A stretch of 34,611 nt of DNA from Eubacteriales bacterium (GCA_045613265.1 JAZLAP010000145.1:1-34611), one strand, 5' to 3'; shown: positions 1,835 through 30,689, counted from the first letter of the stretch. The notes: generated by a model not told the origin, from the letters alone. Numbers and translations are program-made.

Positions 1835-2325
1835 GCGGTCACCACCATTCTCCCGTCCTTCTTTTTAAAGGTCAGGCTGACTCCAAGCTCTTTATACTTT
1901 GTAAGAATAAAATGCGTGGTCGTGCTCTGCACCGCCTCGATCGATGCCAGCTTGTCGGAAATGAACAGAGAAATGTCGCGGATGCTGCTTCCCTTTACGG
2001 TAATGAGAAAATCGTAGGTGCCCGACATGAGGTAGAGCGTCTCCACCTGCGGATAGTCTCCGATCTCCTCGGCGATCTTGTTGTAGCCGTCGCCCCCCTG
2101 CGGCGTTACGCGCAATTCCACAAGAGCCGTCACGTCGCCCGACGATACCTTATCCCAATTTACGAGAGCCTGATAACCGCAGATCACGCTTTCCGCCTCA
2201 AGACGCGCGATCTCGGCGGCAACCGCCGCCTCATCCATGCCCATCGCCGCGGCAATATCCGCCGCCGTCAATCGGCAATCGCTTTCCAAAAGCCGTAAAA
2301 TTTTGTCTTTTTCCTGTACGGTCAT
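1831..2325 (-). CDS. Lrp/AsnC family transcriptional regulator (AlaR/YugG-like)
   Basis: N-terminal HTH (ILRLLESDCRLTAADIAAAMG), RAM domain with LYLMSGTYD and TTTHFIL; RBS AAGGAGG; coupled to the aminotransferase as in B. subtilis alaR-alaT. Confidence 0.92.
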   Translation of the reverse strand: MTVQEKDKILRLLESDCRLTAADIAAAMGMDEAAVAAEIARLEAESVICGYQALVNWDKVSSGDVTALVELRVTPQGGDGYNKIAEEIGDYPQVETLYLMSGTYDFLITVKGSSIRDISLFISDKLASIEAVQSTTTHFILTKYKELGVSLTFKKKDGRMVVTA

Positions 2326-2377
2326 AATAACCCTCCTTATTAACTTCGGGAACGCTTCCCCGAGTATATATTAATTT

Positions 2378-2406
2378 ATTGTAGCATACCTTCGCCCGAA
2401 TTGCAA
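2378..2406 (-). promoter_or_regulatory. sigmaA-type promoter of lrp-aminotransferase
   Basis: Minus strand TTGCAA-17 bp-TACAAT with TGn extension. Confidence 0.65.
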
Positions 2407-2586
2407 TATTTTTGCCGTATTTTTTGCAATTTTTTCTCGCTTCCGCATATTTTCACACCAAAACGCACCGCAATTCCTCTTTTTGTGATCAAACGTAAAG
2501 CAGGTCACTTTTTTGGGACACACGAATATAATAGATATCAGAACAGACAGCAAGAAAATGAATACGGAAAATAGGGGGGACATACC

Positions 2587-2742
2587 TTGAAAAGCAAAAT
2601 GCTTTGCTGCATTCTCGGCGTCGGTGCACTCGCCTTCGGACTCGGCGTGCTCCTGTCTTGCTTCATGCCGTCCGAGGTGTTAGTCGTCATTCTGGCAATT
2701 CTGATCGCCGCCGTCGGTGTCGCATATTTTATCAGAAAGTAA
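2587..2742 (+). CDS. Small 2-TM membrane protein (51 aa) upstream of spoVM-like gene
   Basis: Below ORF-track cutoff. RBS AGGGGGA, TTG start (alternative ATG at 2599): MKSKMLCCILGVGALAFGLGVLLSCFMPSEVLVVILAILIAAVGVAYFIRK*. Confidence 0.75.
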   Translation: MKSKMLCCILGVGALAFGLGVLLSCFMPSEVLVVILAILIAAVGVAYFIRK

Positions 2743-2754
2743 GAGGTCAGTCTC

Positions 2755-2838
2755 ATGAAATTCATTGTCATCCGTCCGCCGCGTTTTCTGTTGCCGCTTT
2801 TTCGTAAAATGAGCGGCAGCAACCAAAAGAAAAAGTAA
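2755..2838 (+). CDS. spoVM: Stage V sporulation protein M-like peptide (27 aa)
   Basis: RBS GAGGT; MKFIVIRPPRFLLPLFRKMSGSNQKKK* aligns with B. subtilis SpoVM (MKFYTIKLPKFLGGIVRAMLGSFRKD), including Pro9 and F11-L12. Confidence 0.8.
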   Translation: MKFIVIRPPRFLLPLFRKMSGSNQKKK

Positions 2839-2842
2839 AAAT

Positions 2843-2878
2843 AAAGCGATATGTAAAGCTTAATTTACATATCGCTTT
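2843..2878. terminator. Bidirectional terminator between spoVM and glgB
   Basis: Perfect 15-bp inverted repeat AAAGCGATATGTAAA / TTTACATATCGCTTT between convergent genes. Confidence 0.8.
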
Positions 2879-2881
2879 GTT

Positions 2882-4870
2882 TTATTGCTTTGTCGTGCGC
2901 ACCAGAATCAGTGCCGTACGCGTCGGCAAATAGACCTTCGTAAAAGTACCTCCCTCTTCACGCACAGCATAATGCACGCCACCGCGTGTCACCCGCCCGA
3001 AGCCTCCGAACACCTTCTCGTCGCTTGACAAAGCAACGGTGTATGTCCCCGAACGCAGCATGGGAACCACAAGGTCGGCATACGAGCGCGTCGGATGCAG
3101 ATTGTACAAAAACACCGCTCCCCCACGTGCATACGCGATAATCTTGCGCTCATTATCGATCATGAGACAAACGGCAGGCTTCGATCCGAGCTTTTTCTTT
3201 TTGGCAAATCCGATCATCGCCCGATCAAACATAAGCATTTCACGATAGCGAAGCGCCTCATCGTCAGCAAGATGCCATTGCCGCCGCGCATAAAAATGAC
3301 TCCATCCGTTCCCCTCGCGCGGAAAATCGATCCACTCGGGATGCCCGAACTCGTTGCCCATAAAATTGAGATACCCCTCTCCACCAAGCGAAAGCGAGAG
3401 AAGACGCATGATCTTGTGCAAAGCAATACCGCGATCGATCACCGCACTTTGACAGTCCTTGCGCATATCGGTGTACATCACGCTGTCGCAAAGACGAAAC
3501 ATCAAGGTCTTGTCCCCTACAAGTGCCTGGTCGTGTGACTCGGCATATCCGATATATTTTTCGTGCGGGCGGCGGCTCGACAGCTCATAATAAATATGGT
3601 GCATATCCCAATCCTCATCGCACACGTCGCGCAAAAGCCGTGTCCACATGTCGGGAATCCCCATTGCCAGCCGATAATCAAACCCGATTCCGCCGTCACC
3701 GATCGGAAGACACATCCCCGGCATCCCCGACATGTCCTCGGCAATCGTTACCGCATGCGGATTTACCTCATGTATCAGCTCGTTTGCCAGCTGCAGATAA
3801 GTCACCGCCTCAACCTCGGTATTCATCGAAAAGTATTTACTGTAATCGGTAAAGGCAGCACCCAGCCCATGATCGTGATAGATCATCGATGTCACCCCGT
3901 CAAAGCGAAAGCCGTCAAAATGAAATTCGCAAAGCCAATACTTTAAATTTGATAGAAGGAAATGAATGACCTCGTTTTTATTGTAATCAAAAAGCTTCGT
4001 CCCCCATGCAGGATGATTGCCGCGCGAGCCTGCGTGAAAAAACTGATAGGGCGTTCCGTCAAATTCGGCAATTCCCTCGGCAGTATTGGAAACCGCATGC
4101 GAATGTACTACGTCGAGAAGCACCGATAGCCCCATTCCATGCGCTTTATCGATCAGCAGCTTCAGTTCCTCGTTGCTTCCGTAACGCGAGGAAGCAGCAA
4201 AAAAATTCGAAACCTGATAGCCGAACGAGCCGTAGTACGGATGCTCCATGATAGCCATGATCTGCACCGTGTTGTAACCGTTCTCACAAATGCGCGGCAA
4301 TATATTTTCGCTGAATTCGCGATAGCTTCCCACCCCCTCCCGCTCCTGCGCCATCCCAATATGACATTCGTATATATATATATCCTTTTGCCGACGCGGA
4401 GATTTGTACTTCCATTCATATGGCAAAGCATCTGTTATAATACCGCAAAATTCACGCGTGACGGGATCTTGCTCCACACGGCGAATGTATAGCGGAATAC
4501 GGTAAAACAGCGCATCTCCCCGCCGCACGACCGCCTTCACGTGACAGCCGTGATACAGACTGCCCTCGCCCGCAAGAAATAACTCAAAAACTCCGTTTTC
4601 CAGCCGACGCATCGGAAGACTCGTCATATCCCAGCCATTCATATCCCCCGCAAGATACATAGCATCCGCCCCCGGCGCCCACTCTCTGTAATACCACCCG
4701 CCGTCCACCTTGTGAAAGCCGAAGTATTCATATCCGCTTGCAAATTCCGTAAGAGACGACACACCCCGTAAAAGCTCTCGCTTCTTCTTTTCATATCGCT
4801 CCATCCGAAGCTCTATGTCTGCCTTATACGGCAAAAGATACTCGTCATGCTCCAGTATCTTGTATTCCAT
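2882..4870 (-). CDS. glgB: 1,4-alpha-glucan branching enzyme (GH13, eukaryote/Bacteroides-like GH13_8 type)
   Basis: YREWAPGA, IYECHIGMAQE, IMEHPYYGSFGYQV, GFRFDGVTSM, IAEDMSG, YAESHDQALVGDKT, FMGNEFGHPEWIDFPREGN. Confidence 0.95.
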   Translation of the reverse strand: MEYKILEHDEYLLPYKADIELRMERYEKKKRELLRGVSSLTEFASGYEYFGFHKVDGGWYYREWAPGADAMYLAGDMNGWDMTSLPMRRLENGVFELFLAGEGSLYHGCHVKAVVRRGDALFYRIPLYIRRVEQDPVTREFCGIITDALPYEWKYKSPRRQKDIYIYECHIGMAQEREGVGSYREFSENILPRICENGYNTVQIMAIMEHPYYGSFGYQVSNFFAASSRYGSNEELKLLIDKAHGMGLSVLLDVVHSHAVSNTAEGIAEFDGTPYQFFHAGSRGNHPAWGTKLFDYNKNEVIHFLLSNLKYWLCEFHFDGFRFDGVTSMIYHDHGLGAAFTDYSKYFSMNTEVEAVTYLQLANELIHEVNPHAVTIAEDMSGMPGMCLPIGDGGIGFDYRLAMGIPDMWTRLLRDVCDEDWDMHHIYYELSSRRPHEKYIGYAESHDQALVGDKTLMFRLCDSVMYTDMRKDCQSAVIDRGIALHKIMRLLSLSLGGEGYLNFMGNEFGHPEWIDFPREGNGWSHFYARRQWHLADDEALRYREMLMFDRAMIGFAKKKKLGSKPAVCLMIDNERKIIAYARGGAVFLYNLHPTRSYADLVVPMLRSGTYTVALSSDEKVFGGFGRVTRGGVHYAVREEGGTFTKVYLPTRTALILVRTTKQ

Positions 4871-5518: not shown

Positions 5519-5875
5519 ATGAAAAAGTATAATGTAAACGTAAACGGCAATCTCTATGAGATCACTCTCGAGGTCGTTGAGGCCTCCGAGGTCAAAAATG
5601 CACCCGCAGCCCCTGCTGCTGCACCCGCTCCCGCAGCTCCTGCCGCAGCCGCACCCGCAGGTGGACAGAAGGTTGAGGCACCCATGCCCGGTACGATCCT
5701 CGATGTTAAGGTATCCGCCGGCGCAAGCGTCAAAAAGGGCGATGTTCTCTTCATCCTCGAAGCAATGAAAATGGAAAACGAGATCATGGCACCCTGTGAC
5801 GGGCAGATTTCGGCTGTCAACGTACAAAAGAATTCCTCCGTACAAAGCGGCGACCTTCTCTGCGTCATTGCATAA
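5519..5875 (+). CDS. Biotin carboxyl carrier subunit of the Na+-pumping decarboxylase (MmdC/GcdC-like)
   Basis: [11 protein letters not shown]-terminus, Ala/Pro linker, APMPG and the EAMKMENEI biotinylation motif. Confidence 0.93.
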
Positions 5876-5890
5876 GGGAGGGATCTTCCC

Positions 5891-7279
5891 ATGTCACAAT
5901 TCCTTGACGGAATCAACAGTTTTCTGACGCAAACGGGATTCTTCCTGTTCGGCGAGGGGCAAAACTGGAAATGCATCGTCATGCTGGTGATTGCATTTGC
6001 GCTTTCCTACCTTGCCATTGTGAAGAAATTCGAGCCGATGCTGCTTCTCCCCATCGCCTTCGGTATGCTTCTCACCAATCTCCCCGGCGCTGAAATGTTC
6101 CACGAGGAGCTTTTTGCAAACGGTCATATCAACTGGCAGCTCTTCGGCGGTGCCACGATCTCGGACGGAACCATCTATACCGTTCTCGGTGACCTTCTTT
6201 CAAAAATTGAAGGCATGCCCGAATTGATCGCAGTAGCTGAAGCTGCGCATGTCCCGGTTGAAAGCTTCATCGCAGGCATTCAGAACACCGATGCACTTGC
6301 GCTGATCGAAAACAGTGCCGCGCTCCAGAAGCTGATCGCCAATATGGGCAACTCGATCACCCCCGGCATCGTGGACTATCTCTATCTCGGCGTCAAGTTC
6401 GGTCTTTACCCCTGCATCATCTTTATCGGTGTCGGCGCAATGACCGATTTTGGTCCCCTGATCGCCAATCCGAAATCGCTCCTGCTCGGTGCCGCCGCGC
6501 AGGCAGGAATCTTTGCAACCTTCGCCGCCGCACGCCTTTTCGGCTTCACAGGCGCAGAGGCTGCCTCGATCGGTATCATCGGCGGTGCCGACGGTCCGAC
6601 CGCGATTTTCACAACCTCGATTCTCGCGCCGCACCTTCTCGGCCCGATCGCCGTTGCCGCATACTCGTATATGGCACTTGTTCCGGTCATTCAGCCCCCG
6701 ATCATGCGTGCGCTCACCACGAAAAAGGAGCGCGCCATCGTGATGACCGAGCTTCGTCCGGTCTCCAAAACGCAGAAGATCCTTTTCCCCTTCATCGTTA
6801 CGGCATTCGTTGCACTTCTCGTTCCCTCGGCAGCACCGCTTGTCGGCTGTCTCATGCTCGGCAATCTTTTCCGTGAAACCGGCGTTGTGGAGCGTCTCTC
6901 AAAGACGGTGCAGAACGAGCTGATCAACATCGTCACGATCTTCCTCGGCGTTTCGGTCGGCGCAACGGCTACCGCCGCCACCTTCCTCTCCTGGAACACG
7001 ATCACAATTATCGGAATGGGCATCGTTGCCTTTGGTGTTGCTACGGCTACCGGCGTGCTCTTCACGAAATTTTTAAACCTCTTCTTAAAGAACAAACTCA
7101 ATCCTCTGATCGGCTCTGCCGGCGTTTCTGCCGTCCCGATGGCGGCACGTGTCTCGCAGGTTGAAGGTCAGAAGGAAAACCCCGGCAACTTCCTGCTCAT
7201 GCACGCCATGGGTCCGAATGTTGCGGGCGTTATCGGCTCAGCCATTGCCGCAGGCGTACTGATCGGCATCTTTGGTTGA
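5891..7279 (+). CDS. oadB: Na+-translocating decarboxylase beta subunit
   Basis: [70 protein letters not shown]. Confidence 0.95.
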
Positions 7280-7293
7280 TATAGGAGGACACA

Positions 7294-8724
7294 ATGGAAC
7301 AAAATAATCTTTTCACAACTAACAAAAAGCTGTTTATCACCGACACCATTCTCCGTGATGCACACCAGTCGCAGGCGGCTACACGCATGACACTCGAGGA
7401 TATGCTTCCCGGATGCAAAACGCTGAACGAGATCGGCTACTGGTCGCTCGAATGCTGGGGCGGTGCTACCTTCGACTCCTGCATGCGATTCCTTGACGAG
7501 GATCCTTGGGAGCGCCTCCGTGCTCTGCGCCGTGCGATCCCCGACACGAAGCTCCAGATGCTTCTGCGCGGTCAGAACATCCTTGGCTACAAGCATTACG
7601 CAGACGATGTTGTCGAAGAATTTGTCAAAAAGTCTATCGAAAACGGCATCGACGTTATCCGCGTATTCGATGCTTTGAACGACACCCGTAACATGGAAGC
7701 CGCTATGCGCGCGATCAAAAAGTATAAGGGCATCTGCGAGGCGACCATCTCCTACACCACCTCTCCCGTCCACAACGAGGAATACTTCGTTGCACTGGCA
7801 AAGAAGCTTGAGGGCATGGGTGCCGACACGATCTGCATCAAGGACATGGCAAACCTCCTTCTCCCGAAGGAAGCCTACAGCCTCGTCCGTAAGCTGAAGG
7901 AAAACATCGACTGCCCCATCCATCTGCACACCCACAACACCTCGGGCACCGGCGACATGGTCAACCTCATGGCTGCTATGGCAGGTGTCGATATCGTGGA
8001 CTGCGCACTCTCGCCGATGGCAAACGGTACGGCACAGCCGGCTACCGAATCGCTCGTCGCCGCCCTTGCAGGAACGCCGCGCGATACAGGGCTCGATCTT
8101 TCCAAGATGAGCGATGCCGCATCTCACTTCCGCAAGGTTGCTCAGCGCTTGAAAGCGGCAGGCTCTCTGGATCCCAAAGTGCTGAATGTAGATACAAACA
8201 CGCTTCTCTATCAGGTTCCCGGCGGCATGCTCTCGAACCTTTTATCTCAGCTGAAGCAGGCAGGTGCCGAGGATAAGCTTTATGACGTGCTTGCCGAGAT
8301 CCCGCGCGTCCGTAAAGATTTCGGGTATCCGCCGCTCGTTACGCCGACCTCCCAGATTGTCGGTACACAGGCTGTGCTGAATGTCCTGCAGGGACAGCGC
8401 TACAAGATGGTGACGAAGGAATCGAAGGGTCTCCTTCGCGGAGAATACGGCCAGCTTCCCGGTGAAATCAACGAGGAAGTACGGAAAGCCGCGATCGGCG
8501 ATGCCGAGCTTGTCACCTGCCGCCCTGCCGATATGATCGGTCCCGAGCTTCCCAAATACAGAGAGGAAGCAAAGGATCTGGCAAAATCCGATGAGGATGT
8601 CCTCTCGTATGCTCTCTTCCCCGCCGTTGCGCAGAAATTCCTTGAAAAGCGCAATGCACCGAAGGTAGAGGCGCCCGCTGAGGATGCCGTCCGCACGATC
8701 TACGTGCAGGATCTCTCGGTATAA
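7294..8724 (+). CDS. oadA: Oxaloacetate decarboxylase alpha / pyruvate carboxyltransferase subunit (no fused biotin domain)
   Basis: LRDAHQS, LECWGGATFD, MLLRGQN, IKDMA, LHTHNT, QVPGGMLSNL, GYPPLVTPTSQIVG. Confidence 0.9.
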   Translation: MEQNNLFTTNKKLFITDTILRDAHQSQAATRMTLEDMLPGCKTLNEIGYWSLECWGGATFDSCMRFLDEDPWERLRALRRAIPDTKLQMLLRGQNILGYKHYADDVVEEFVKKSIENGIDVIRVFDALNDTRNMEAAMRAIKKYKGICEATISYTTSPVHNEEYFVALAKKLEGMGADTICIKDMANLLLPKEAYSLVRKLKENIDCPIHLHTHNTSGTGDMVNLMAAMAGVDIVDCALSPMANGTAQPATESLVAALAGTPRDTGLDLSKMSDAASHFRKVAQRLKAAGSLDPKVLNVDTNTLLYQVPGGMLSNLLSQLKQAGAEDKLYDVLAEIPRVRKDFGYPPLVTPTSQIVGTQAVLNVLQGQRYKMVTKESKGLLRGEYGQLPGEINEEVRKAAIGDAELVTCRPADMIGPELPKYREEAKDLAKSDEDVLSYALFPAVAQKFLEKRNAPKVEAPAEDAVRTIYVQDLSV

Positions 8725-8827: not shown

Positions 8828-9646
8828 TTATGTAGGATCGGAAAGTGTGCGGCGATATTCTGTTGGGGATACGCCAAAGCGTTTGCGAAATACACGGCTG
8901 AAATACAGACCGTCCGAAAAACCCACGACAGATGCGATTTCTTTCACGGGATGATCGGTGAAACGGAGCATCTTTGCCGCATTTCGCATTCTTGTATTGT
9001 GAATTGCTTCTTTGGGGAGCGTGCCGGTTTCTTTCTTGAAAAGAATAGAAAAATAATTGGGGTGCAGATGTAGGGCATTGGCGATAGACAGGACGTTGCA
9101 TCCGGGAGAGGCATAATCCTTTTCAATGATAGAGAGCGCTTGCCGCACGTAAGGGCTTTTGTTTTCGCGTTTATCAGCGGAAAGCAAAGAAAACAGCTTG
9201 TGTAAAAGCGATATGCAGTAGATGCGCGTGGAGAGGGAGGGGCGGTCAAAAAGCTCATACATTTCATCAAAAAGCACCTCCACCTCGCGCCCGTTTTGGA
9301 GCGGCATAAAGGGCTGCTCGCGCGTGATACCGACGAGGGCAAGATAACGCTCGATAAGCTCGCCGTTTGCCGAGATCCATTTTATGCTCCACGGGTGTGC
9401 ATCGGTCGATCGATAGATGTAGTTACTGTGCGGAAAGTTAACGAAGAAGCCCTCTCCCGAAAGCAGGATACGGGAATTTCCTACGGTAAGCTCTGCCTCG
9501 CCTTTTTTTATGTAGTAAATAAGATAGTCGTCACGCATGTGCGGTCCATAGCGATGTCCGATATTTTCAAGACGCCTGCCGCAGTAGGAAAGCACAAGGT
9601 CGCTGTCAAGTCCTTCAAAGCTTTTTTCTTCAAAGTTGTTCGCCAT
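8828..9646 (-). CDS. AraC family transcriptional regulator (MsmR/MelR-like cupin sensor domain)
   Basis: N-terminal CG...HRYGPHMRDDYLIYYIKKG; C-terminal VKEIASVVGFSDGLYFSRVFRKRFGVSPTEYR; RBS GAGGTG. Confidence 0.93.
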   Translation of the reverse strand: MANNFEEKSFEGLDSDLVLSYCGRRLENIGHRYGPHMRDDYLIYYIKKGEAELTVGNSRILLSGEGFFVNFPHSNYIYRSTDAHPWSIKWISANGELIERYLALVGITREQPFMPLQNGREVEVLFDEMYELFDRPSLSTRIYCISLLHKLFSLLSADKRENKSPYVRQALSIIEKDYASPGCNVLSIANALHLHPNYFSILFKKETGTLPKEAIHNTRMRNAAKMLRFTDHPVKEIASVVGFSDGLYFSRVFRKRFGVSPTEYRRTLSDPT

Positions 9647-9753
9647 TTTGCATCACCTCGTTGTTATTATAACACAAGAAAGAGAAAAAGTCCATATAAA
9701 ACTCGTGTTTTTCTATAGAAAAAAGAGAAAAAATGATGTACAATGGTCTTGTT

Positions 9754-10031
9754 ATAGCCGAAAAGAGCCTAACCCATAAGGTTTTCGCCTTCATAAATCT
9801 CCGTATCCATCAGAGAAATTTTCTCGGAATATCCTATATTCCTTCGTAAATTTTCTTCGTCTACGAAAATTTCTGTCCGACGGAAACTGCAAGGCACCTC
9901 TCGGCGAGCGGATTTCCGATGATTTCTGTCGAAAATCGGCGAAGCAAGGTAAGACCTTGCGAGACGGGAGACGGCAGAAAGCGCGGAAATACGTCGTCGA
10001 GAGGCTTATGGGTTCGGCTTTCTTCGGCTAT
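9754..10031 (+). repeat. 278-bp element with 27-bp imperfect terminal inverted repeats and nested internal stems (structured leader RNA or MITE)
   Basis: 9754-9780 ATAGCCGAAAAGAGCCTAACCCATAAG vs reverse complement of 10005-10031 ATAGCCGAAGAAAGCCGAACCCATAAG (24/27). Inner pairings CCTCTCGGCGA..ATTTCCG / CGGAAAT..TCGTCGAGAGG, TTTCTGTCG / CGGCAGAAA, GCAAGGT-aag-ACCTTGC. Confidence 0.7.
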
Positions 10032-10063
10032 TCAACAAAACGATCAAAAGGAGAGAATTCTGA

Positions 10064-12292
10064 ATGATGAACAAAAAGGAACTGACGGCAGCCGTCAAGC
10101 AAATGGCATACGCACTTGGCGCGGATATGGTGGGCATCGCCCCTGTCTCTCGCTTTGACGGACAGCCGCATATGCTGCACCCGAAGGCGCATCTGCCCGA
10201 GGCAAAATCCGTCATCTGCTTCGGCATCCACCACCCTGACGCATCGGTGGAATGGTGCGGCGAGCCTAACCCGAACTATCCCGAGGCATTCCAGATCGGT
10301 ATGATCCCGAAGCTTGATACGATGTGCTATCGCATTGCTAAAATGCTGGAAAAGGAAGGCTATCCGACGGTCGCACAGCCCTGCACGACCTATTGGCGAC
10401 ACAGAAAATACAAGGATATTCCCTACGAGCACGCCGCAACCTTCAGCCATATGGCGGCATTTGTCGCCTGCGGCCTCGGCGAATACGGTTATCACGGTAT
10501 GGTAATGTCTCCCGAATACGGTCCGCGCGAGCGCATTATTTCCATCATCACCTCGGCAGAGCTTGAGCCTGACCCGCTTTACAACGGCGCACCGCTTTGC
10601 GATGAATGTAAGATGTGCGCCCGTGTCTGTCCGGGCAGAAATTACGAAGCCGAAAAGCTGAACGATCCGAATTTTATTGAGTTTGAAATCGAAGGCAAGA
10701 CCTTCCGTTATCCGAATATTAACCGTTGGCGGTGCTTTTTCGGTGAGCAGGCACATCTTGATACAACGAAGCTCGGCGACATCGTTAAGCTTGATGAAGA
10801 TGGCATCTACGAGGCGATAGACACCGTGCCGCGTATCATTACCCGTAACGGCGGCTATATGTGTAAGTCCTTCAAGCACTGTATGTCGAGGGGCAAGCGC
10901 TATTACGATAAGAAGTATGCACCCGGTCCGCGCCGCAAAAAAGAAAAATCCGACCTTTCAAAAGAGGCTATGATGGCAAAGATCGTCGAGCTTGCCGTCG
11001 CGTCGGGCGCCGACCGTATCAGCGTTGCGCCGCTTTCCGAGTTCGCAGACCACAAGCCGAACTTTGAGGAAGGCTTCCGCACGGAACAGTTCTTCGAGCA
11101 TTTCAAAACCGTGATCACCTTCGGTCGCCTCGTTCACAAGTACAGTAAGGATATTCCGCTCGAGGACAGAAATGCTCTGCACATTCAGCGTCCGACCGAT
11201 GAGCATATGGAGTCGATACTGATTGACGTCAGCCGCTATCTCGACGATCTTGGGTATGATGCCATTCAGGACTGGTATGCTACGGGTATTGCCAAGGAGC
11301 ATGCACGCCGCAGTGGTTGGTATGAAAACGGAAAAGAGGTCTATGCCTTCTCTGTGTTCTGCGATATTCCCTTTGAGAGAGAAAACCGCATTCTGAAAAA
11401 ATTCGAGCTTGAAAGCTTCCCTGCGGTAGATGCTACGCTTCCTCTTTTTGAAAATGTGGAATTTGTCAGCGTCGGAAACGTTGAGGGTATTACATACGAG
11501 GGTATGGAAGCGGTCAAAAAGGTTTACCCGAATGTACGCTCGATCGTGGCAATCGCCTCGGCGATTCCCGAACGAACCGTTGAGCTTGCCTGCCGTCAGG
11601 AGGCGGAAGACGGCGGCCCTTATGCGTACATGCACTACGAAACCCTAAAGGAATCTCTTTGGACAGGCGAAGACCTTTGTGACGCGCTCGAGGCTCGTGG
11701 CTATTTTGCCGTGACGCTCCCCGATCTTGCCCCCGATTCCTATTTGACGATCGGCAAGCTCGGTCGTCATATGCCCGACCTCTATGCAAACGCGCCCTTC
11801 GCCGCTGCGGCGGGACTCGGTGCGATTGGGAAGAGTGGTATGCTTACCCGTGCCGATGTCGGCCCGCGCCTGCGTTATGTGTTCGTGCTCACCGATGCGC
11901 CCCTCACTCCGACCGAACACGCGGGAAAGGACGTCGCTTGCCCCATCGACTGCACCGCTTGCGCCGAGGCTTGTCCGATGAAGGCGCTGTCTCCCGAACG
12001 GCTTATGAACGTAACCGTCAGAGACGGAGAATCTTATCCCGTAATGAAGCGCGATGAGACGCGCTGCATGTGGGCGCGCTCGCTTGCTATGTGCGAGGGG
12101 GCAGGCTCGACGCAGCTCGGTTGGCAGATTCCCGACATCGCCGTTCCCGAAGTGATCACTCCCGAAAAAATAGAAGAAGTGCTTCAGTCAAAGGACAAGA
12201 TACAAACGCTCTGCTACCAATGCCCGAACTTCACGGACATCATCATTGAGCGCTGCTTGCAGGTCTGTCCGATCGGAAAGAAAAAACAATAA
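10064..12292 (+). CDS. Fe-S protein with three tandem epoxyqueuosine-reductase (QueG)/reductive-dehalogenase-like units
   Basis: Unit 1: LGADMVGIAP, LPEAKSVI, SHMAAFVACGLGEYG..GMVMSPEYGPR, CDECKMCARVCP. Unit 2 (no Fe-S motif): SGADRISVAP, FKTVITFG, YLDDLGY. Unit 3: YPNVRSIV, LEARGY, AAAAGLGAIGKSGML..VGPRLR, CPIDCTACAEACP, ERCLQVCP. RBS AAGGAG. Confidence 0.8.
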   Translation: MMNKKELTAAVKQMAYALGADMVGIAPVSRFDGQPHMLHPKAHLPEAKSVICFGIHHPDASVEWCGEPNPNYPEAFQIGMIPKLDTMCYRIAKMLEKEGYPTVAQPCTTYWRHRKYKDIPYEHAATFSHMAAFVACGLGEYGYHGMVMSPEYGPRERIISIITSAELEPDPLYNGAPLCDECKMCARVCPGRNYEAEKLNDPNFIEFEIEGKTFRYPNINRWRCFFGEQAHLDTTKLGDIVKLDEDGIYEAIDTVPRIITRNGGYMCKSFKHCMSRGKRYYDKKYAPGPRRKKEKSDLSKEAMMAKIVELAVASGADRISVAPLSEFADHKPNFEEGFRTEQFFEHFKTVITFGRLVHKYSKDIPLEDRNALHIQRPTDEHMESILIDVSRYLDDLGYDAIQDWYATGIAKEHARRSGWYENGKEVYAFSVFCDIPFERENRILKKFELESFPAVDATLPLFENVEFVSVGNVEGITYEGMEAVKKVYPNVRSIVAIASAIPERTVELACRQEAEDGGPYAYMHYETLKESLWTGEDLCDALEARGYFAVTLPDLAPDSYLTIGKLGRHMPDLYANAPFAAAAGLGAIGKSGMLTRADVGPRLRYVFVLTDAPLTPTEHAGKDVACPIDCTACAEACPMKALSPERLMNVTVRDGESYPVMKRDETRCMWARSLAMCEGAGSTQLGWQIPDIAVPEVITPEKIEEVLQSKDKIQTLCYQCPNFTDIIIERCLQVCPIGKKKQ

Positions 12293-13215: not shown

Positions 13216-16200
13216 TTACTCAGCAATGTAAGCCATCATTGCACGGAGCAGATTGGAGAGTGCGTTGGTCTCGTCTGCCACAATCTTGAGTGCAGCATAC
13301 TGAGCAAGGCTGTAGTAGTTGGTATTGCTGATTGCGGTGTTTTCCGCATTGCAAATGGTAGCAGCAAATACCTGACCCCAGTTTGCAGCATCGATCTCAA
13401 CCTCAACAACATACACACCGTTCACGATCTCGCAATCGGCAATCGCGATGCTGTCGTAGATCTTGTCGCCATCCTTGTTCGTGAGAACAAGGCGTGCTCC
13501 CTCGGGAAGGTTGGTGGTGATGTGATAAACAAAGCTAACCTTGTCACCGATCGAAACACCACGGCCTGCAAAGAATGCAGTAGCGTTCTCAATCTTCTTG
13601 GTGGGCACTGCTTCAACAACAGGAGCCTCGGCTACACGGTCAAACGCGAAGGTCTCGGCATCGCCTGCGCAAAGAATACCAGCGATCTCACCAAAGAGGC
13701 GGACCTCAAAGGTGTCAAGGATTGCAGAAAGCTTATCAGTGGTGTAAACGAAGGTGTAAACGCCCTCAACCTCATCGTAGCTTTCGACCTTCTCGCCGTT
13801 CACTTCGATCCATGCAGCATGGTAACGACCAAGATGCGTGTCCTTAACACTGATGGTAAGCGTGATCTTAGAATCAATGGTAGGAACAATCGAAATTGCA
13901 GAGTCAAAGCCAATGAAATCAACAACCTGACCTACTTCGACATCCTGCTCACCGAAGTAAGCAGCGATATGATACGAGCCGCAAACCGCGCAGATCTGGT
14001 AAACGGTATCAGAGATCTCGCTGATGTGATCATGCTCGCACCAGGTGTGACCTGCAGGAATGATGTAGTATTCCTCTACAACACCACATGCACAAGCGGA
14101 TTTTGCAATGCCGGTCGTGTTGCAATCGGTGCTGGGCTTAATAATAACTTCTGCAAATGCGTGGTTGGTTGCATCAAGCTGCTCGCCGGGTTCCGAATCA
14201 TAGGAATCCTTGCAAACAGAGCACTCGAAGTGCGTATATGCACCCTTCTGGCAGGTTGCAGCAACCGAGGTTTCAACGTAGGAGCATTCAGCCTTCTCGG
14301 TCTTGTTGCAAGTAGCACAAACGCGGCTATGCTCGCCGTCAACGGTAACGTATTCGCTCCAGTCATGACCGAGAGCCTTCAGAGTGTCATCGCCCTTGCC
14401 GGTCTCGGGATTGATCGAAGCTACGTAGTGATTGATCGTCTGGATCTCCGTCTGACATACGGAGCAGGAGATAACGGTACGTGCATCGTTCTCACAATCT
14501 GCTGCGTATTCGGTAACAAGCTCGGTGTGCTCAAGCTTCGAGTTTGCTACTTCGTGCTTAACGCCGTCCTTTGCAGCCGAGCAAACGGTGCAGGGGATGT
14601 AAACGAAAGCATTGTGTGTGCAGGTTGCCTCTTCGATATACTCCTCAGCTGCCCAGGTATGCTCGCCGGTTGCATCAATAGCCGCAGTCTCGCCTTCAGC
14701 ACCACAGACCTTGCAGAACTCAGTCTTCTTGCCATCAACGCCGCAGGTAGGATTGGTAACAACCTTGAATTCCATATTGTGACCAGTTGCATCGATCACA
14801 ACATCAACGGACACGCCGCATACCTTACAGGTATCAACACCTGCGCCGGGCTCGGTGCAAGTAGGAGCGGTTACGACCGTACGGTCATAGCTGTGTGCTG
14901 CGGGCATAAGGAAGTAGCCGTTGTTGAGCTTGGAATCGCAAGCACATACGTACTTGCCGATACCGCTTGCCGTGCAGGTAGGAGCCTTTACAACTGCCTC
15001 GGTCCATTCATGGTTCTGAGGATTCTTGGCAGCAGTCTCCTCGGTGTAAGCATGCTTACAATCCTTACAGGTGTAGGTAGTAACTTCCTTCTTCTGGCAG
15101 GTAGCTACCGTAGTAACGGCAGATCCATAGCGGTGTGCCTTCTTCTCTACGTACTGGCAAACCTTACAGGTACGGGTATGCTGATCCTTGTCAGCGTAAG
15201 CATAGCCGCCGTAGGTGTGACCAAGAGCCTTCTCGGCTTCGTCACCGGTCGCCTCGTAAAGGTCTACCTTATCAAACTCGGTCTTACATCTGTCACAAAC
15301 GGAAACGTCAAGACCATTCGTGGTACAGGTGGGCTTACGGTACTCGGAACCATCGGCATCTACGTGACCGAGAGGATCGCCAACCGTAACAACGTCCTTT
15401 TCAGCTTTACATACGGTACATACGGTGTAAACCTTTGCAGCCTCAGTACAGGTAGCGTCCTTGGTCTGCTCGGTTACCCAAGTATGATTGCCGGTAGGAT
15501 TGATTGCAATTGCATCGCCAAAGGTCTTCAGACAAACGGTACAGGTGTCGATCTTCGAGCCGGCAACGCCGCAGGTAGGATTCTTAGTGACAACGATCTC
15601 AGTCTTGTGACCAAGAGCGGGAACCGTGTAATCCTTTTCCTCTACGCCGCAAACCTTACATACGTGAGAAGCTTTGCCTTCACCATCACAGGTGGGGACT
15701 ACGCTGTAAACGGGTTCATCCCACGTGTGTGCAGCGGGAACGAGGTAGTAGGGATTTTCAGGTCTGATCGCGCCACATGCGCAAGCAGCCTTTGCAATAC
15801 CGTTGGTCGTGCAGGTAGGTGCCTTGATGATCAGTTCCTTATCGTAGGTGTGGTTGGTGGGATCCTTCTCACCGGTTTTATTCTGGAAGCTGTGCTCGCA
15901 AACCGTGCATGTAAACTTCGTGTACTCGTAATTCTGGCAGGTTCCGGGGATAATCTCATTCTCCCACTCACAGTTCTCAAAGTCCTCATCACCGCAACGT
16001 GCGCAAACAGCCTTGTGCTTGCCGCCCGTAGCATAAGCAAACTCGCCGTAGTTATGGCCGAGTGCGGGAGAACCGACAGGATTACCGTCTGCACCCAGTT
16101 CCTCGGAAAGATCTACCGTATCAAGGATCTCTTTGCAAACCGTGCAGAAGATCTCCTCGCGCTCGGGATTCTCGCAATCCGCATCATAGTGCTTGGACTC

Positions 16201-18450
16201 TTCCTTATGACCAAGAGCATCGTTCAGGGTCTCAATTCTCGTAGGATCCTTCGCACCGCACGAGGTACATGCAAAATAAATCTGCGTGCCGGTCGTACAG
16301 GTAGCATCCACAACCGTCTCGGTATCGGCATACACGTGGTTGCCGGTAGGATCGATTGCGATCGCTTCGCCAAAGGTCTTTTCGCAAACGAGGCACATCT
16401 CGATCTTCGAGCCTGCAACGCCGCAGGTAGGATTCTTAGTGGTTACAATCTCAGTCGTGTGGTCGAGAGCAGGAACCGTGTAATCCTTCTCCTCTGCGCC
16501 ACAAACCTTACATACGTGAGTTGCCTTGCCTTCACCCTCACAGGTGGGGACTACGCTGTAAACGGGATCGCCCCAAGTGTGCGCTGCTTCGACTACGTAA
16601 TAACCGCCGACAAAGCCGCATTCACAGATCTGCTTCTTGATGCCGTTGGTCGTGCAGGTGGCAGGCTTAATTACCTTATCCTTGCCCCAAACGTGATTGT
16701 CGGTATTCTTTTCGCCTTCAACCTTATCAACAGTATAGCCACACTCGTCACAGGTGTAACGGTTGACTTCTGCCTTAAGACAGGTTGCAACGGAAACGTT
16801 TACTTTATTAAGGGTGCATTCGCTCTCGCTGAGCTTTTCGCCACAGGTCTGGCAGGACACGGTATGGTTGCCGTTCTTGTCGCTGACAGGACTACCGAGA
16901 GTGTGACCGAATGCCTTCAAAGCAGGATCGGCTACGCCCTCGCCGCCAAGTGCCTCGAACAGGTCACGAACGCCGTCCTCAGGCTTGTAAGTACATCTTG
17001 CGCAGAACTGAACTTCCACAGAGTTGGAGGTACAGGTCGCAGGCTTGACTACGTAATCCCAGTCATGACCAAGGGCATTTGCGCCATCAATCACCTTCTC
17101 GGAGCCTTCCTTCACGGCCTGGCATACGGTACAAGCGATCCAGACCTTGCCGGGGTTCAGACAATCGGCATTCGAATGCGATTCGGTATCCGACCAAGCG
17201 TGTTCACCCACAGCAGGAAGCACCTCGGTAGCGCCGCCTTCCTTTACGGTAAGGCACTTGGTACACATTTCAACAGCAAGACCGGTGTTGCCGCAGTTGG
17301 GCTTCGCCGTGGTCACCATATCATACGTGTGGCCCTCGGTCTCAATCGTGTAGATCTCTTCAAGGTTACATGCGCTGCACTTATGCGTTGCCTTGCCGTC
17401 CTCTTCGCAGGTAGCGGGAGTCACGTTGTAATCCTCGCCCCACGTGTGGCCCTTTTCGATGATCATGTAATCACCGGTCGCGCCGCAGACCTTACAAACC
17501 TGTTTGCCGATGCCGTTCATCGTACAGGTAGCGGGCTTGATTGCCTTCACGTCATAATCGTGCTTCGTGAAGTCGAAGCCTGCATCCTCATCCGTCACGG
17601 AGTAGGAGTAACCGCAGGTGCAGGTGTACGTGGTTACCTTGTAGGTATGGCAGGTAGCATCGGTAACGTCGGTGGTATATACGCACTCGATGTTCTCCTC
17701 GATAACCGTTTTGCAGTCGGCACATACCTTATCGTGGGTTCCGTCGCCGTTAGCAACGAGCTTCGTCTCTGCATGTTCCTTCTTCTTCAGGAGGAGATCT
17801 TCAGCACCTGCTGCAACGGATGCCTCGTAAAGGTCGTCTTCGCCTACTACTTCATCGCAAAGCGCACAGTAGGTAACGACCTTGGCATTGTCCTCGCAGG
17901 TAGCGTCGAACGTCTTGTCATAGGTCTCGGGATGATTGAGCGGAGCAAGATCCTCAATCACCTGCTTGTGTTCCAGATCGGCATAGCCGCAAACCGAACA
18001 CTCATAGACCGCATAGCCGTACTCGGTACAAGTAGGATCAACGATCGTCTCGGTTGCATTCCACGTATGCTCGCCGGTCGCGGGAATCACAACGTCTTCA
18101 CCCAGCTTCTGCTCGCAGATCGCGCACCAAAGATACTTGATTCCGCTCTCGCCGCAGGTCGGCTTCTTGGTTACAAGCCAGTCGTTGGTGTGAAGGGGAA
18201 GCTGCTCGTAAACGGGCTTTCCGCAATCGTCACACTTGTACTTTGCAATACCGATCACGCCGGTTTTGCAGTCCGATTTTTTGAGATCGCTCACATGCGT
18301 CTTGTTCTCGTGGCTGCACTCTTCTACAACCTCAGTGATCGTAGAAGTGAAATCATTGGCCTCGTTCTCTTCTGCTGCAAAGGAAGGAATGTACAGCGAA
18401 GAAAGAAGCGTAAGGCAGGCCAAAATGATTGCAAAAATTCTGTTTTTCAT
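13216..18450 (-). CDS. Giant secreted His/Cys-rich repeat protein (~1744 aa) with a non-repetitive C-terminal region
   Basis: ATG 18450 has RBS TGGAGG (track start 18462 is a TTG inside the RBS). Sec signal peptide MKNRIFAIILACLTLLSSLYIPSFA-A. About 36 modules of the form H-x~10-(P/A)TC-x~9-CxxC. C-terminus ends YSLAQYAA..LSNLLRAMMAY. Confidence 0.9.
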   Translation of the reverse strand: MKNRIFAIILACLTLLSSLYIPSFAAEENEANDFTSTITEVVEECSHENKTHVSDLKKSDCKTGVIGIAKYKCDDCGKPVYEQLPLHTNDWLVTKKPTCGESGIKYLWCAICEQKLGEDVVIPATGEHTWNATETIVDPTCTEYGYAVYECSVCGYADLEHKQVIEDLAPLNHPETYDKTFDATCEDNAKVVTYCALCDEVVGEDDLYEASVAAGAEDLLLKKKEHAETKLVANGDGTHDKVCADCKTVIEENIECVYTTDVTDATCHTYKVTTYTCTCGYSYSVTDEDAGFDFTKHDYDVKAIKPATCTMNGIGKQVCKVCGATGDYMIIEKGHTWGEDYNVTPATCEEDGKATHKCSACNLEEIYTIETEGHTYDMVTTAKPNCGNTGLAVEMCTKCLTVKEGGATEVLPAVGEHAWSDTESHSNADCLNPGKVWIACTVCQAVKEGSEKVIDGANALGHDWDYVVKPATCTSNSVEVQFCARCTYKPEDGVRDLFEALGGEGVADPALKAFGHTLGSPVSDKNGNHTVSCQTCGEKLSESECTLNKVNVSVATCLKAEVNRYTCDECGYTVDKVEGEKNTDNHVWGKDKVIKPATCTTNGIKKQICECGFVGGYYVVEAAHTWGDPVYSVVPTCEGEGKATHVCKVCGAEEKDYTVPALDHTTEIVTTKNPTCGVAGSKIEMCLVCEKTFGEAIAIDPTGNHVYADTETVVDATCTTGTQIYFACTSCGAKDPTRIETLNDALGHKEESKHYDADCENPEREEIFCTVCKEILDTVDLSEELGADGNPVGSPALGHNYGEFAYATGGKHKAVCARCGDEDFENCEWENEIIPGTCQNYEYTKFTCTVCEHSFQNKTGEKDPTNHTYDKELIIKAPTCTTNGIAKAACACGAIRPENPYYLVPAAHTWDEPVYSVVPTCDGEGKASHVCKVCGVEEKDYTVPALGHKTEIVVTKNPTCGVAGSKIDTCTVCLKTFGDAIAINPTGNHTWVTEQTKDATCTEAAKVYTVCTVCKAEKDVVTVGDPLGHVDADGSEYRKPTCTTNGLDVSVCDRCKTEFDKVDLYEATGDEAEKALGHTYGGYAYADKDQHTRTCKVCQYVEKKAHRYGSAVTTVATCQKKEVTTYTCKDCKHAYTEETAAKNPQNHEWTEAVVKAPTCTASGIGKYVCACDSKLNNGYFLMPAAHSYDRTVVTAPTCTEPGAGVDTCKVCGVSVDVVIDATGHNMEFKVVTNPTCGVDGKKTEFCKVCGAEGETAAIDATGEHTWAAEEYIEEATCTHNAFVYIPCTVCSAAKDGVKHEVANSKLEHTELVTEYAADCENDARTVISCSVCQTEIQTINHYVASINPETGKGDDTLKALGHDWSEYVTVDGEHSRVCATCNKTEKAECSYVETSVAATCQKGAYTHFECSVCKDSYDSEPGEQLDATNHAFAEVIIKPSTDCNTTGIAKSACACGVVEEYYIIPAGHTWCEHDHISEISDTVYQICAVCGSYHIAAYFGEQDVEVGQVVDFIGFDSAISIVPTIDSKITLTISVKDTHLGRYHAAWIEVNGEKVESYDEVEGVYTFVYTTDKLSAILDTFEVRLFGEIAGILCAGDAETFAFDRVAEAPVVEAVPTKKIENATAFFAGRGVSIGDKVSFVYHITTNLPEGARLVLTNKDGDKIYDSIAIADCEIVNGVYVVEVEIDAANWGQVFAATICNAENTAISNTNYYSLAQYAALKIVADETNALSNLLRAMMAYIAE
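15488..16566. repeat. Pair of ~227-bp closely similar direct repeats (15488-15714 and 16340-16566) inside the giant gene
   Basis: Constant 852-nt (284-codon) offset; shared blocks such as GCAACGCCGCAGGTAGGATTCTTAGTG and TCACAGGTGGGGACTACGCTGTAAACGGG. Confidence 0.9.
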
Positions 18451-18517
18451 TTTTTCCTCCAAGTGGTAGTGTTAGATAAAATTGGTTGCTGTTACGTATG
18501 ACTGTCTTTCTCCCTCG

Positions 18518-23994: not shown

Positions 23995-24039
23995 TTATAT
24001 TTGGAAAGTAATTAATTTATTTTAAAGGAGAAAATAGCC

Positions 24040-25338: not shown

Positions 25339-25350
25339 GGAGAAACGACC

Positions 25351-29670: not shown

Positions 29671-29707
29671 TGCGATCCTTTCGGAAAACGTATTTTAAAG
29701 AATGCGA

Positions 29708-30598: not shown

Positions 30599-30660
30599 AA
30601 TAATGTCTCCTTTATGATTAAAAAATACTTTTTCACTTTAGCAGACTCAAGTGATGCTCT

Positions 30661-30689
30661 ATTATAGCACATATTTTTCATTTTGTAAA
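30661..30689 (-). promoter_or_regulatory. sigmaA promoter of the amino-acid ABC operon
   Basis: Minus strand TTTACA-17 bp-TATAAT with TGn extension. Confidence 0.75.

Follow-up and report, generated by a model that had tools for sequence, protein, structure and literature searches.

A three-unit RdhA/QueG-type iron-sulfur protein encoded beside an AraC-type regulator in anaerobic bacteria

Here we analyze a pair of divergently transcribed genes in a 34,611-nucleotide contig from a Eubacteriales bacterium (GCA_045613265.1 JAZLAP010000145.1); this whole stretch is referred to as the window, and all coordinates are those of the window unless a different contig is named. One of the genes encodes a 742-amino-acid iron-sulfur protein, and the other encodes an AraC-type regulator. 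We confirmed that the 742-amino-acid protein is a triplicated scaffold of the type shared by the reductive dehalogenase RdhA and the epoxyqueuosine reductase QueG, in which units 1 and 3 are complete and unit 2 consists of the core only. This three-core form is a new architecture within the known RdhA/QueG superfamily. With regard to function, taking the sequence comparisons and the structural models together, we lean towards a cytoplasmic reductase of this superfamily, built from the triplicated unit and controlled by the AraC-type protein, that would act on a small molecule derived from carbohydrates.

Three copies of one scaffold in a single chain

The proposal that the protein contains three QueG/RdhA-like copies was made in an earlier note on this DNA, and two kinds of comparison agree with it. 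BLASTP between the thirds of the protein aligned unit 1 (residues 135-199) with unit 3 (582-647) at an expectation value (E) of 2e-9, and unit 1 (2-54) with unit 2 (298-354) at E 2e-6. When a family alignment of 74 members was cut between residues 292/293 and 452/453 and the pieces were compared profile to profile, units 1 and 3 matched with a probability of 100% (E 1.1e-64, 256 columns), units 1 and 2 with 99.5% (E 4.6e-23, 138 columns), and units 3 and 2 with 99.2% (E 2.8e-19). Because the match between units 1 and 2 is confined to residues 5-172 of unit 1, unit 2 can be identified as a copy of the N-terminal core without the ferredoxin part; as the note had stated, it contains no cysteine motif. 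The mean column identity, calculated from per-unit alignments of 55 fetched loci and the window, is highest in unit 1 (64%) and lowest in unit 2 (30%), with 42% in unit 3. Judging by the aligned sequences, we hold it as firm that units 1 and 3 are not redundant copies of one another.

The protein belongs to a large family that is spread over several phyla and apparently unstudied. One set of homologs comprised 147 full-length proteins at E ≤ 1e-3 among 7992 scored candidates, with 40-89% identity and lengths of about 726-811 residues, and a search of a representative library gave 1924 matches at E ≤ 1e-3 and 105 at E ≤ 1e-30. Relatives in the ESM Atlas carry automatic names only ('hypothetical', 'epoxyqueuosine reductase (fragment)'). 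We found no paper describing a three-core RdhA/QueG form. The accessible part of a survey of 'RdhA-like' proteins mentions cytosolic forms of 300-1000 amino acids with a vestigial core and makes no mention of a three-core form, and the supplementary tables of 'cytosolic RdhA-like' proteins in the same source might include relatives (PMC12219181).

Fold and relation to reductive dehalogenases

Pfam matched the 742-amino-acid protein with generic 4Fe-4S models only. A sequence search of the PDB matched residues 113-214 to PceA (E 1.6e-10 and 4e-8), QueG (1.5e-4) and NpRdhA (1e-3). With profiles of the separate units, unit 1 matched PceA at 4.7e-17 and QueG at 1.3e-8, and unit 3 matched PceA at 4.8e-20 and 1.4e-15, QueG at 7.7e-12 and NpRdhA at 6.6e-10; the profile of unit 2 found nothing in the PDB by sequence (best E 0.45).

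The structural comparisons lead to the same relatives. The AlphaFold2 model of the whole chain, built on the 74-member alignment, had a predicted local distance difference test score (pLDDT) of 95.6 and a predicted TM-score (pTM) of 0.95. Foldseek searches with the whole model placed NpRdhA (8e-11), PceA (3e-8) and QueG (6e-8) at the top, with nitroreductases and MMACHC at about 1e-2 to 1e-3. VIA-align, run on Foldseek's list, superimposed unit 1 on QueG (5d0a; Z 17.7, root-mean-square deviation 3.5, 226 aligned residues), PceA (Z 17.1, deviation 3.0-3.2, about 225 aligned) and NpRdhA (Z 16.7), and gave Z 10.2 for MMACHC with the full model, Z 7.0 for a minimal nitroreductase on residues 300-435 and Z 7.4 for CblD on residues 463-615. 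Units 2 and 3 were barely sampled in this list and were therefore checked separately. Folded alone, unit 2 had a pLDDT of 93.7. Foldseek returned no match for it at E ≤ 1e-3 (best 1.8e-3), and a Foldseek-independent search of 48,161 representative chains found NpRdhA (Z 9.6, 153 aligned), a yeast nitroreductase (9.1), PceA (8.8) and QueG (8.3), followed by about 45 entries with the nitroreductase fold; the fold assignment of unit 2 is based on this VIA search and on the internal profiles.

In units 1 and 3, a nitroreductase-type cofactor core thus precedes a ferredoxin insert for two clusters, as in the RdhA/QueG superfamily (the 'class III B12' fold). The earlier note had named a failure of units 2 and 3 to align with the QueG/RdhA fold as the result that would speak against its proposal; both units align.

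Comparison with the individual relatives clarifies what is distinctive. The catabolic, NpRdhA-type RdhA enzymes carry a vestigial second core, described in the accessible part of the source as unable to bind cobalamin and as mimicking the dimer interface of respiratory RdhA; because the vestigial core mimics the monomer-monomer interface, NpRdhA is monomeric (PMC10463259). The note's statement that RdhA is a single-unit enzyme is accordingly too general. Unit 2 corresponds to such a vestigial core duplicate, with the core fold, no cysteine motif and a low (30%) column identity. Like NpRdhA (4ras, 6zxu) and JtRdhA, the window protein is soluble, lacks a twin-arginine translocation (Tat) signal, and combines a core and two-cluster ferredoxin insert with an extra core devoid of cofactor. 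Unlike NpRdhA, however, it places a cluster-less core between two complete ones that each bear a ferredoxin insert, for a total of three cores, lacks a C-terminal NAD(P)H-reductase module, contains seven rather than eight cysteines per unit, and belongs to an AraC and sugar-gene context rather than to aromatic catabolism. PceA (4uqu, 8q4h) is the closest relative of units 1 and 3 at the sequence level, sharing the first CxxCxxCxxxCP motif and the isolated cysteine (C668 aligns with C372 of PceA), but PceA is a dimeric protein exported by Tat and held by a PceB anchor, and it has one unit, with eight cysteines. QueG (5d08, 5d0a, 5d6s) is cytoplasmic and has the same core and ferredoxin insert; the window protein differs from it in lacking the HEAT-like tRNA-binding domain and the ligand equivalent to C240, and its genome encodes a gene product closer to QueG. 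The B12-trafficking proteins MMACHC/CblC and CblD and the FMN nitroreductases (the latter with Z 6-9 on unit 2) have, as does unit 2, a nitroreductase-type core without a ferredoxin insert, but their similarity is much weaker than that of RdhA and QueG; sequence profiles link unit 2 to units 1 and 3 (99.5%), and not to these proteins. What is unusual here is the presence of two complete units and one vestigial unit in a single chain.

The protein also lacks the marks of an exported enzyme. The neighbors of the family genes were examined in 79 reference-genome loci, in which open reading frames (ORFs) were called crudely and clustered; the set contains 61 full-length genes, including that of the window, 58 of them with an upstream neighbor, and the annotation covers the 59 recurrent clusters. 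A Tat-like motif is present in 0 of the 74 family members, the maximum 19-residue hydropathy of the 742-amino-acid protein is 1.08, with no membrane-like segment, no small hydrophobic ORF lies downstream, and there is no rdhB-like gene among the recurrent clusters. Both hallmarks of respiratory reductive dehalogenases, the Tat signal peptide and the RdhB anchor gene, are therefore missing, as the note had observed. These sequence features support the prediction of a soluble, cytoplasmic protein.

Cysteine pattern and putative active sites

The full ferredoxin motifs described previously are present, CDECKMCARVC (C179-C189) in unit 1 and CPIDCTACAEAC (C626-C637) in unit 3. The second motifs had been described as degenerate, but C224, C273, C668, C731 and C735 are conserved in 73-74 of the 74 members, and C267 (23 members) and C269 (51) are mutually exclusive and together account for 74/74. 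Because seven cysteines are near-invariant in each complete unit, the second motifs have not decayed; rather, they form a fixed seven-cysteine pattern. Conversely, the CYQC cysteines of unit 3, regarded as spare in the note, are not conserved (C717 in 17/74, C720 in 5/32).

The RdhA/QueG superfamily is characterized by eight cysteines that ligate two [4Fe-4S] clusters, and seven conserved ones are found per complete unit in 74/74 members. In QueG, the motif reads C188-x2-C191-x2-C194-x3-C198-xn-C214-xm-C240-x2-C243-x3-C247; C198, C214, C240 and C243 are given as the ligands of the cobalamin-proximal cluster, and C188, C191, C194 and C247 as those of the distal cluster, in the portion of the source available (PMC5175355). 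We aligned the units with 41 shorter relatives to place the second motif and assigned the clusters by analogy to B. subtilis QueG. The C-x2-C-x3-C arrangement is kept in at least 21 of these 41 relatives, and its first cysteine, the equivalent of C240, is missing in the units of the three-unit family and in the nearest single-unit relatives. Each complete unit would hence lack one proximal ligand and keep the other three, along with the full set of four distal ligands, and by this analogy its seven cysteines should suffice for a complete distal [4Fe-4S] cluster and a three-cysteine proximal cluster. None of the candidate fourth ligands is universal: C107 is present in 33/34 members of the orthologous subgroup and in 0/40 distant members, C717 is variable, and E729 (72/74) stands at the unit 3 position that matches C267 of unit 1. 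This leaves three candidate forms for the proximal cluster: 3Fe, 4Fe with a ligand other than cysteine, or 4Fe with an open iron.

The last option raises the possibility of a B12-independent enzyme, in which the free iron of a three-cysteine proximal [4Fe-4S] cluster would itself bind and reduce the substrate, and the substrate would occupy what was once the corrinoid pocket. Reductive deoxygenation or dehydroxylation by the iron of an iron-sulfur cluster is the chemistry of IspH, IspG and QueH. The missing cysteine is the equivalent of C240 of QueG, a ligand of precisely the cofactor-adjacent cluster, and its loss is fixed in 74/74 members and in both complete units, with at least 21 of 41 distant single-unit relatives keeping it. 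Furthermore, a search of the 87% complete genome gave no CobS, and the replacement of QueG by the iron-dependent QueH, as reported in the accessible text of PMC9508795, indicates that another iron enzyme can carry out a reduction of the same kind. However, a three-cysteine cluster may be [3Fe-4S] or may take a non-cysteine ligand, such as E729 or, in the orthologs only, C107, and the cobalamin-binding core fold of the relatives is fully retained (Z 17). We regard a B12-independent mechanism as possible, if doubtful.

For the comparison of active-site positions, numbering was anchored on the cysteine motif, with Cys188 of QueG at chain position 216 (an offset of 28) and Cys329 of PceA at chain position 329. 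In the profile alignment of unit 1, the catalytic Asp134 of QueG (B. subtilis numbering) and Asn272 of PceA stand opposite H123, in a variable column (F in 31, H in 23 and N in 13 of 74 members). For unit 3, the alignment of the QueG Asp134 loop is gapped, and the Asn-Asp pair of 8q4h stands opposite P571-D572, with D572 present in 63/74. The conserved tyrosine above the corrin (Y246 in PceA, Y101 in QueG of S. thermophilus) is placed near I78/F76 in unit 1 and at Y522 in unit 3 by weak alignments (-1.4 and 5.8 bits); F76 is found in 34/34 orthologs, and a tyrosine occupies this position in 27/40 distant paralogs. In unit 3, Y520 (69/74), Y525 (53/74) and N576 (55/74) are conserved. In unit 1, R30, D59, R157 and D180 are invariant polar residues outside the cluster motifs (74/74 each), and H129 (66/74), W111 (71/74) and E228 (71/74) are near-invariant. 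For NpRdhA, the accessible part of the source lists Y426, K488 and R552 as substrate-binding or catalytic residues (PMC10463259).

These observations bear on whether the protein is a true corrinoid dehalogenase of the catabolic type, a cytoplasmic enzyme with two active B12 sites in each chain that would remove halogens from natural organohalides. RdhAs are its best matches in both sequence and fold, it shares with NpRdhA the soluble, Tat-less form and the extra vestigial core, a classical B12-binding-domain protein encoded in the genome suggests that cobamides are in use, and Y520 and Y525 of unit 3 lie near the weakly aligned Tyr246 of PceA. However, the active-site equivalences are uncertain, one cysteine of the proximal cluster is missing, and the reductive dehalogenase model stays under its cut-off (97 against 160 bits). 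Moreover, no partner of the RdhB, RdhC, RdhK or RdhR type is annotated among the 59 recurrent neighbor clusters, the neighbors being sugar-catabolic, and the habitat is that of the animal gut and of anaerobic glycan degraders. On balance, we consider a dehalogenase unlikely.

A further alternative is a protein that only transfers electrons, akin to a polyferredoxin wire, or else a flavin-binding enzyme of the nitroreductase type. Four clusters are possible in one chain, and the cores do resemble FMN nitroreductases. Nevertheless, the invariant polar residues of unit 1 fit a substrate or cofactor site, RdhA and QueG are much closer matches (Z 17) than the flavin nitroreductases (Z about 7), and a dedicated ligand-sensing regulator suits an enzyme better than a wire, which makes this alternative quite improbable.

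Relation to queuosine metabolism

The earlier note had argued that the protein does not act on tRNA, and several results bear this out. The match to the QueG model covers model positions 134-203 of 337 only, Pfam gave no DUF1730 match in the 742-amino-acid protein, and the structural match to QueG extends, in most of the alignments, no further than chain residue 267 and stops short of the HEAT-like RNA-binding domain, which spans Leu257-Leu385 of QueG according to the available portion of PMC5175355.

The genome, a 2.06-Mb assembly of 314 contigs, encodes other candidates for this pathway. A tgt gene lies on contig C25 (486 bits), and a QueG-like ORF of 276 amino acids on contig C235 (1333-2160, plus strand) scores 131 bits against the cut-off of 200, with a weak DUF1730 match and Fer4_16. 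This ORF has the canonical second cysteine motif, is flanked by plsY and a ZIP zinc transporter gene, and is essentially unrelated to the 742-amino-acid protein (BLASTP E 0.11). Although shorter than the model, its product is probably the organism's real epoxyqueuosine reductase, to judge by these sequence features. No QueH was found in the 87% complete genome. A queuosine-pathway role for the three-unit protein, as a QueG isozyme with tRNA or, in salvage, free epoxyqueuine as its substrate, might be suggested by the several homologs that are automatically named 'epoxyqueuosine reductase QueG' and by the E of 3.9e-13 for the QueG model. However, that match amounts to 49 bits against 200, over the short model segment given above and with the HEAT-like part unmatched, the QueG-like gene and tgt reside on other contigs, and no que or tgt genes, the neighbors that the note had named as arguing for such a role, occur among the 59 recurrent clusters. 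Together with the AraC control and the patchy distribution, this renders a role in queuosine synthesis or salvage very improbable.

The same genome encodes a single-unit paralog of 360 amino acids on contig C273, 33% identical to unit 1 (E 2e-26) and likewise paired with a divergent AraC-family gene. An ORF of 350 amino acids beside the paralog was considered as the other part of a split gene and rejected: it has no family match and is unrelated to units 1, 2 and 3 (probabilities of 0.5%, 0.1% and 0.2%; BLASTP E 6).

Regulator, promoter and leader

The divergent regulator matches the Pfam models HTH_18 (81 bits) and AraC_binding (66 bits), both above their cut-offs. Its best full-length model is E. 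coli AraC, at 84 bits and under the cut-off, with MelR at only 46 bits. The assignment to the AraC family thus stands, and the narrower description in the note as 'MsmR/MelR-like' is not specifically supported, given the MelR score; similarly, the label of a 'sugar-type' sensor derives from a generic cupin domain only, and the link to sugars comes instead from the gene neighborhoods of homologs.

The pairing itself is recurrent. By ORF calling, a divergent member of the window's AraC cluster lies directly upstream of the family gene in 25 of 58 loci, and tblastn with the window regulator revealed full-length divergent homologs 119-255 bp upstream in 8 further loci missed by ORF calling; in 2 loci, an AraC-type helix-turn-helix domain fused to a periplasmic-binding-type sensor is found upstream. 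Overall, a divergent AraC gene is directly upstream in at least 33 of the 58 loci, in Oscillospiraceae, Acutalibacteraceae, Lentisphaerae/Victivallales, Planctomycetota and Verrucomicrobia. These data support the view that the putative reductase gene would be under the control of a dedicated AraC-type regulator.

The intergenic DNA shows matching conservation. We aligned the left flank of the intergenic DNA in the window with the intergenic regions of 7 loci encoding proteins about 72% identical, and the alignment contains 26 invariant columns, which include a TAnAAT -10 box (8/8), a AAAGAGAAAAA box with the adjoining GTCCAT on the plus strand (9690-9695; 8/8), and a second AAAGAGAAAAA box. 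Although the number of promoter-like sites is not above that in shuffled sequences (4 vs 3.1), the predicted promoter with a good -10, a weak -35 (TAGAAA) and probable dependence on an activator, as described in the note, is backed by the conserved TAnAAT and the two boxes. We infer that the two A-rich AAAGAGAAAAA boxes are candidate half-sites for binding of the AraC-type regulator.

The intergenic region is 417 bp long in the window and about 90-125 bp in the 7 aligned loci. The leader in the window carries a repeat of about 280 nucleotides with 34-nucleotide terminal inverted repeats and nested repeats, which has 43 matches on 28 other contigs of the genome; the long copies are mostly 85-91% identical, and many are at contig ends. 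In four gut metagenome runs, contigs stop or diverge at 9751-9753 and at 10031, and the depth inside the repeat, when summed, is several-fold above that of the flanks; no contig spanning the repeat or an empty site was found among the DNA contigs of these runs. The repeat is an insertion resembling a miniature inverted-repeat transposable element (MITE) between the -10 box and the ribosome-binding site. As RNA, it has a predicted folding energy of -122.2 kcal/mol, compared with -84.3 +/- 5.1 for shuffled sequences (z -7.5; 0 of 100 shuffles as good), and would be transcribed within the leader as a very stable hairpin. A riboswitch in the long leader was considered and rejected, the structure there belonging to the dispersed repeat: Rfam gave no match at gathering thresholds across the whole window, and only chance-level hits (E about 3) in 9600-10120.

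Gene neighborhoods and distribution

The connection with carbohydrates emerges from the neighborhoods of the homologs. A Gfo/Idh/MocA oxidoreductase, with an IolG-like best match under the cut-off, is encoded within 8 kb in 12 loci and directly downstream on the same strand in 9/59. A dehydratase-type glycyl-radical enzyme together with its activase and a HAD-IIB phosphatase (sugar-phosphatase type) is found in 6 loci from two phyla, four in Oscillospiraceae (L006, L011, L013, L020) and two in Victivallales (L046, L048); the enzyme belongs to the PFL2-3 subfamily (817 bits in L006) and, in the Oscillospiraceae loci, is encoded on the same strand as the AraC gene. A PF12831 FAD oxidoreductase is a neighbor in 5 loci, and the other recurrent neighbors are LacI and IclR regulators, a sugar ABC transporter, GH20, which adjoins the family gene in 3 loci, GH88, GH113, a fucosidase and DUF4838. 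The recurrent clusters contain no corrinoid-handling genes. Because the glycyl-radical enzyme and the Gfo/Idh/MocA protein can be named only at the subfamily level or under the cut-off, no substrate can be deduced.

Several loci (L010, L017, L033, L049, L055, L056, L062, L064, L068) contain two or more family members close together, for example, a 343-amino-acid and a 777-amino-acid member, or an 807-amino-acid and a 347-amino-acid member. Given that members of such different lengths share a locus, single-unit and three-unit forms coexist as neighbors.

The family, which many anaerobes that ferment sugars possess, is represented in gut Clostridia, Lentisphaerae, Planctomycetota, Verrucomicrobia, Kiritimatiellaeota and Spirochaetes, and the DNA carrying the locus comes from animal-gut metagenomes; a search of sequencing runs returned no RNA dataset that carries it. 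Within the organism's own family, the window query matched 4 of 120 other genomes at E ≤ 1e-30, with one clear ortholog, and neither of the 2 genomes of the same genus matched (0/2). The gene is thus accessory and patchy within its bacterial family, yet common to gut Clostridia and anaerobes of the PVC group.

A model of the three-unit protein

The results can be assembled into a simple model, in which the locus would be a two-gene cassette of an AraC-type regulator and a divergently transcribed, soluble cytoplasmic oxidoreductase. The three cores arose by triplication of one unit and would form an internal pseudo-oligomer with units 1 and 3 redox-active. By analogy with the vestigial core of NpRdhA, unit 2 may be structural, packing on a working core so that one chain makes a closed assembly. 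Low-potential electrons, from ferredoxin or a similar donor, would travel through the distal clusters in both complete units to the pocket in each core, where a small carbohydrate-derived molecule, the one sensed by the AraC-type protein, would be reduced. The pocket chemistry might employ a base-off corrinoid, as in RdhA and QueG, or the three-cysteine proximal cluster itself. The accessible part of PMC4646009 cites two chemistries for the superfamily, reductive dehalogenation and epoxyqueuosine reduction, both relying on a corrinoid fed by two clusters. Of the inducible cytoplasmic small-molecule reductase proposed in the note, the cytoplasmic location, the association with AraC and the distinction from tRNA enzymes are all borne out, and the sugar connection now derives from homolog neighborhoods.

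Several observations weigh against this model. No AraC gene lies directly upstream in 25 of the 58 loci. The NCBIfam models for the superfamily both score below their curated cut-offs, with 97.3 bits over two stretches for the reductive dehalogenase model TIGR02486 (cut-off 160.35) and 49.1 bits (E 3.9e-13), also over two stretches, for the QueG model TIGR00276 (cut-off 200). There are no sugar genes beside the cassette in the window, where the downstream gene is a convergent one for a YgjP-type peptidase; the connection to sugars thus depends on other genomes, where a minority of the loci show it. Finally, the MITE-like insertion in the leader might impair expression of the putative reductase in the window's genome.

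A more far-reaching version of the model, which we offer only as a speculation of low probability, is that the family represents a new branch of the superfamily, with two redox modules and a vestigial core, in which catalysis by the three-cysteine cluster replaces or supplements the corrinoid for the deoxygenation or dehydroxylation of a sugar-derived metabolite, switched on by the AraC protein in glycan fermenters of gut and sediment.

The family combines a fixed change in the cluster adjacent to the active site with a ligand-sensing regulator of its own, and the ligand of this AraC-type protein, if found, would point to the substrate. The cassette thereby bears on the question of what other roles scaffolds of the class III B12 type have in anaerobic carbohydrate metabolism. 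In addition, the three-core fusion may be seen as a natural example of internal duplication replacing dimerization in enzymes of the RdhA/QueG type.

Layout of the locus and neighboring genes

The coordinates of the features discussed above and of the adjacent genes are collected in Table 1.

Table 1. Features of the two-gene cassette, its neighbors in the window and the paralogous pair on contig C273
Feature	Position	Strand	Basis or conservation
AraC/XylS-family regulator gene, 272 amino acids	8828..9646	-	ORF calling; AraC_binding at amino acids 22-151, HTH_18 at 188-266
Promoter-like site of the regulator gene, TGGACT-17-TATAAT, TG before -10	9666..9694	-	10/12 matches
Conserved box 1, AAAGAGAAAAA, candidate regulator half-site	9679..9689	.	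Invariant or nearly so in 8 intergenic regions
Conserved box 2, AAAGAGAAAAA, at a spacing of 43 bp from box 1, flanked by the -10 and the weak -35 of the three-unit gene	9722..9732	.	Same alignment
Promoter-like site of the three-unit gene, TAGAAA-17-TACAAT, -10 at 9739-9744	9716..9744	+	9/12 matches
MITE-like dispersed inverted-repeat element in the 5' leader	9753..10031	.	Terminal inverted repeats of 34 nucleotides at 9754-9787 and 9998-10031
Ribosome-binding site GGAGAG, 8 nucleotides 5' of ATG	10050..10055	+	GGAGG-like sites at the same place in homologous loci
Gene for the 742-amino-acid three-unit RdhA/QueG-like iron-sulfur protein	10064..12292	+	ORF calling, homologs, predicted structure
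Unit 1, amino acids 1-292, core and ferredoxin insert	10064..10939	+	Profiles, VIA-align
Unit 1 first cluster motif, C179-x2-C182-x2-C185-x3-C189	10598..10630	+	74/74 each
Unit 1 other ligands (by analogy), C224, C267 (C269 in other members), C273	10733..10882	+	C224 and C273 74/74
Unit 2, amino acids 293-452, nitroreductase-type core only, without clusters	10940..11419	+	Internal profiles, fold search
Unit 3, amino acids 453-742, core and ferredoxin insert	11420..12289	+	Profile matches to PceA, QueG, NpRdhA
Unit 3 first cluster motif, C626-x3-C630-x2-C633-x3-C637	11939..11974	+	74, 74, 74 and 73 of 74
Unit 3 other ligands (by analogy), C668, C731, C735	12065..12268	+	C668 73/74, C731 and C735 74/74
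Decarboxylase biotin carrier	5519-5875	+	
Decarboxylase beta subunit	5891-7279	+	
OadA-type carboxyltransferase, without its own biotinyl domain	7294-8724	+	
Contig C273: single-unit paralog and divergent AraC-family regulator	1087-2166 and 2282-3067	- and +	

The cassette is isolated in the window, between genes for a Na+-translocating decarboxylase on one side and the peptidase gene on the other. Three ORFs further along, 24022-25635 (minus strand), 29702-30667 (plus) and 30756-32450 (plus), encoding 537, 321 and 564 amino acids, match no Pfam family at E ≤ 1e-5. The same holds for an ORF of 1748 amino acids at 13216-18462 (minus strand), the product of which begins with a signal-like segment and contains numerous repeats with abundant paired cysteines, in spacings of the C-x2-C type; its sequence resembles that of a very large repeat protein, either secreted or on the cell surface. 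The genes of the Na+-translocating, biotin-dependent decarboxylase extend over 5519-8724 on the plus strand and end 104 bp before the regulator gene.

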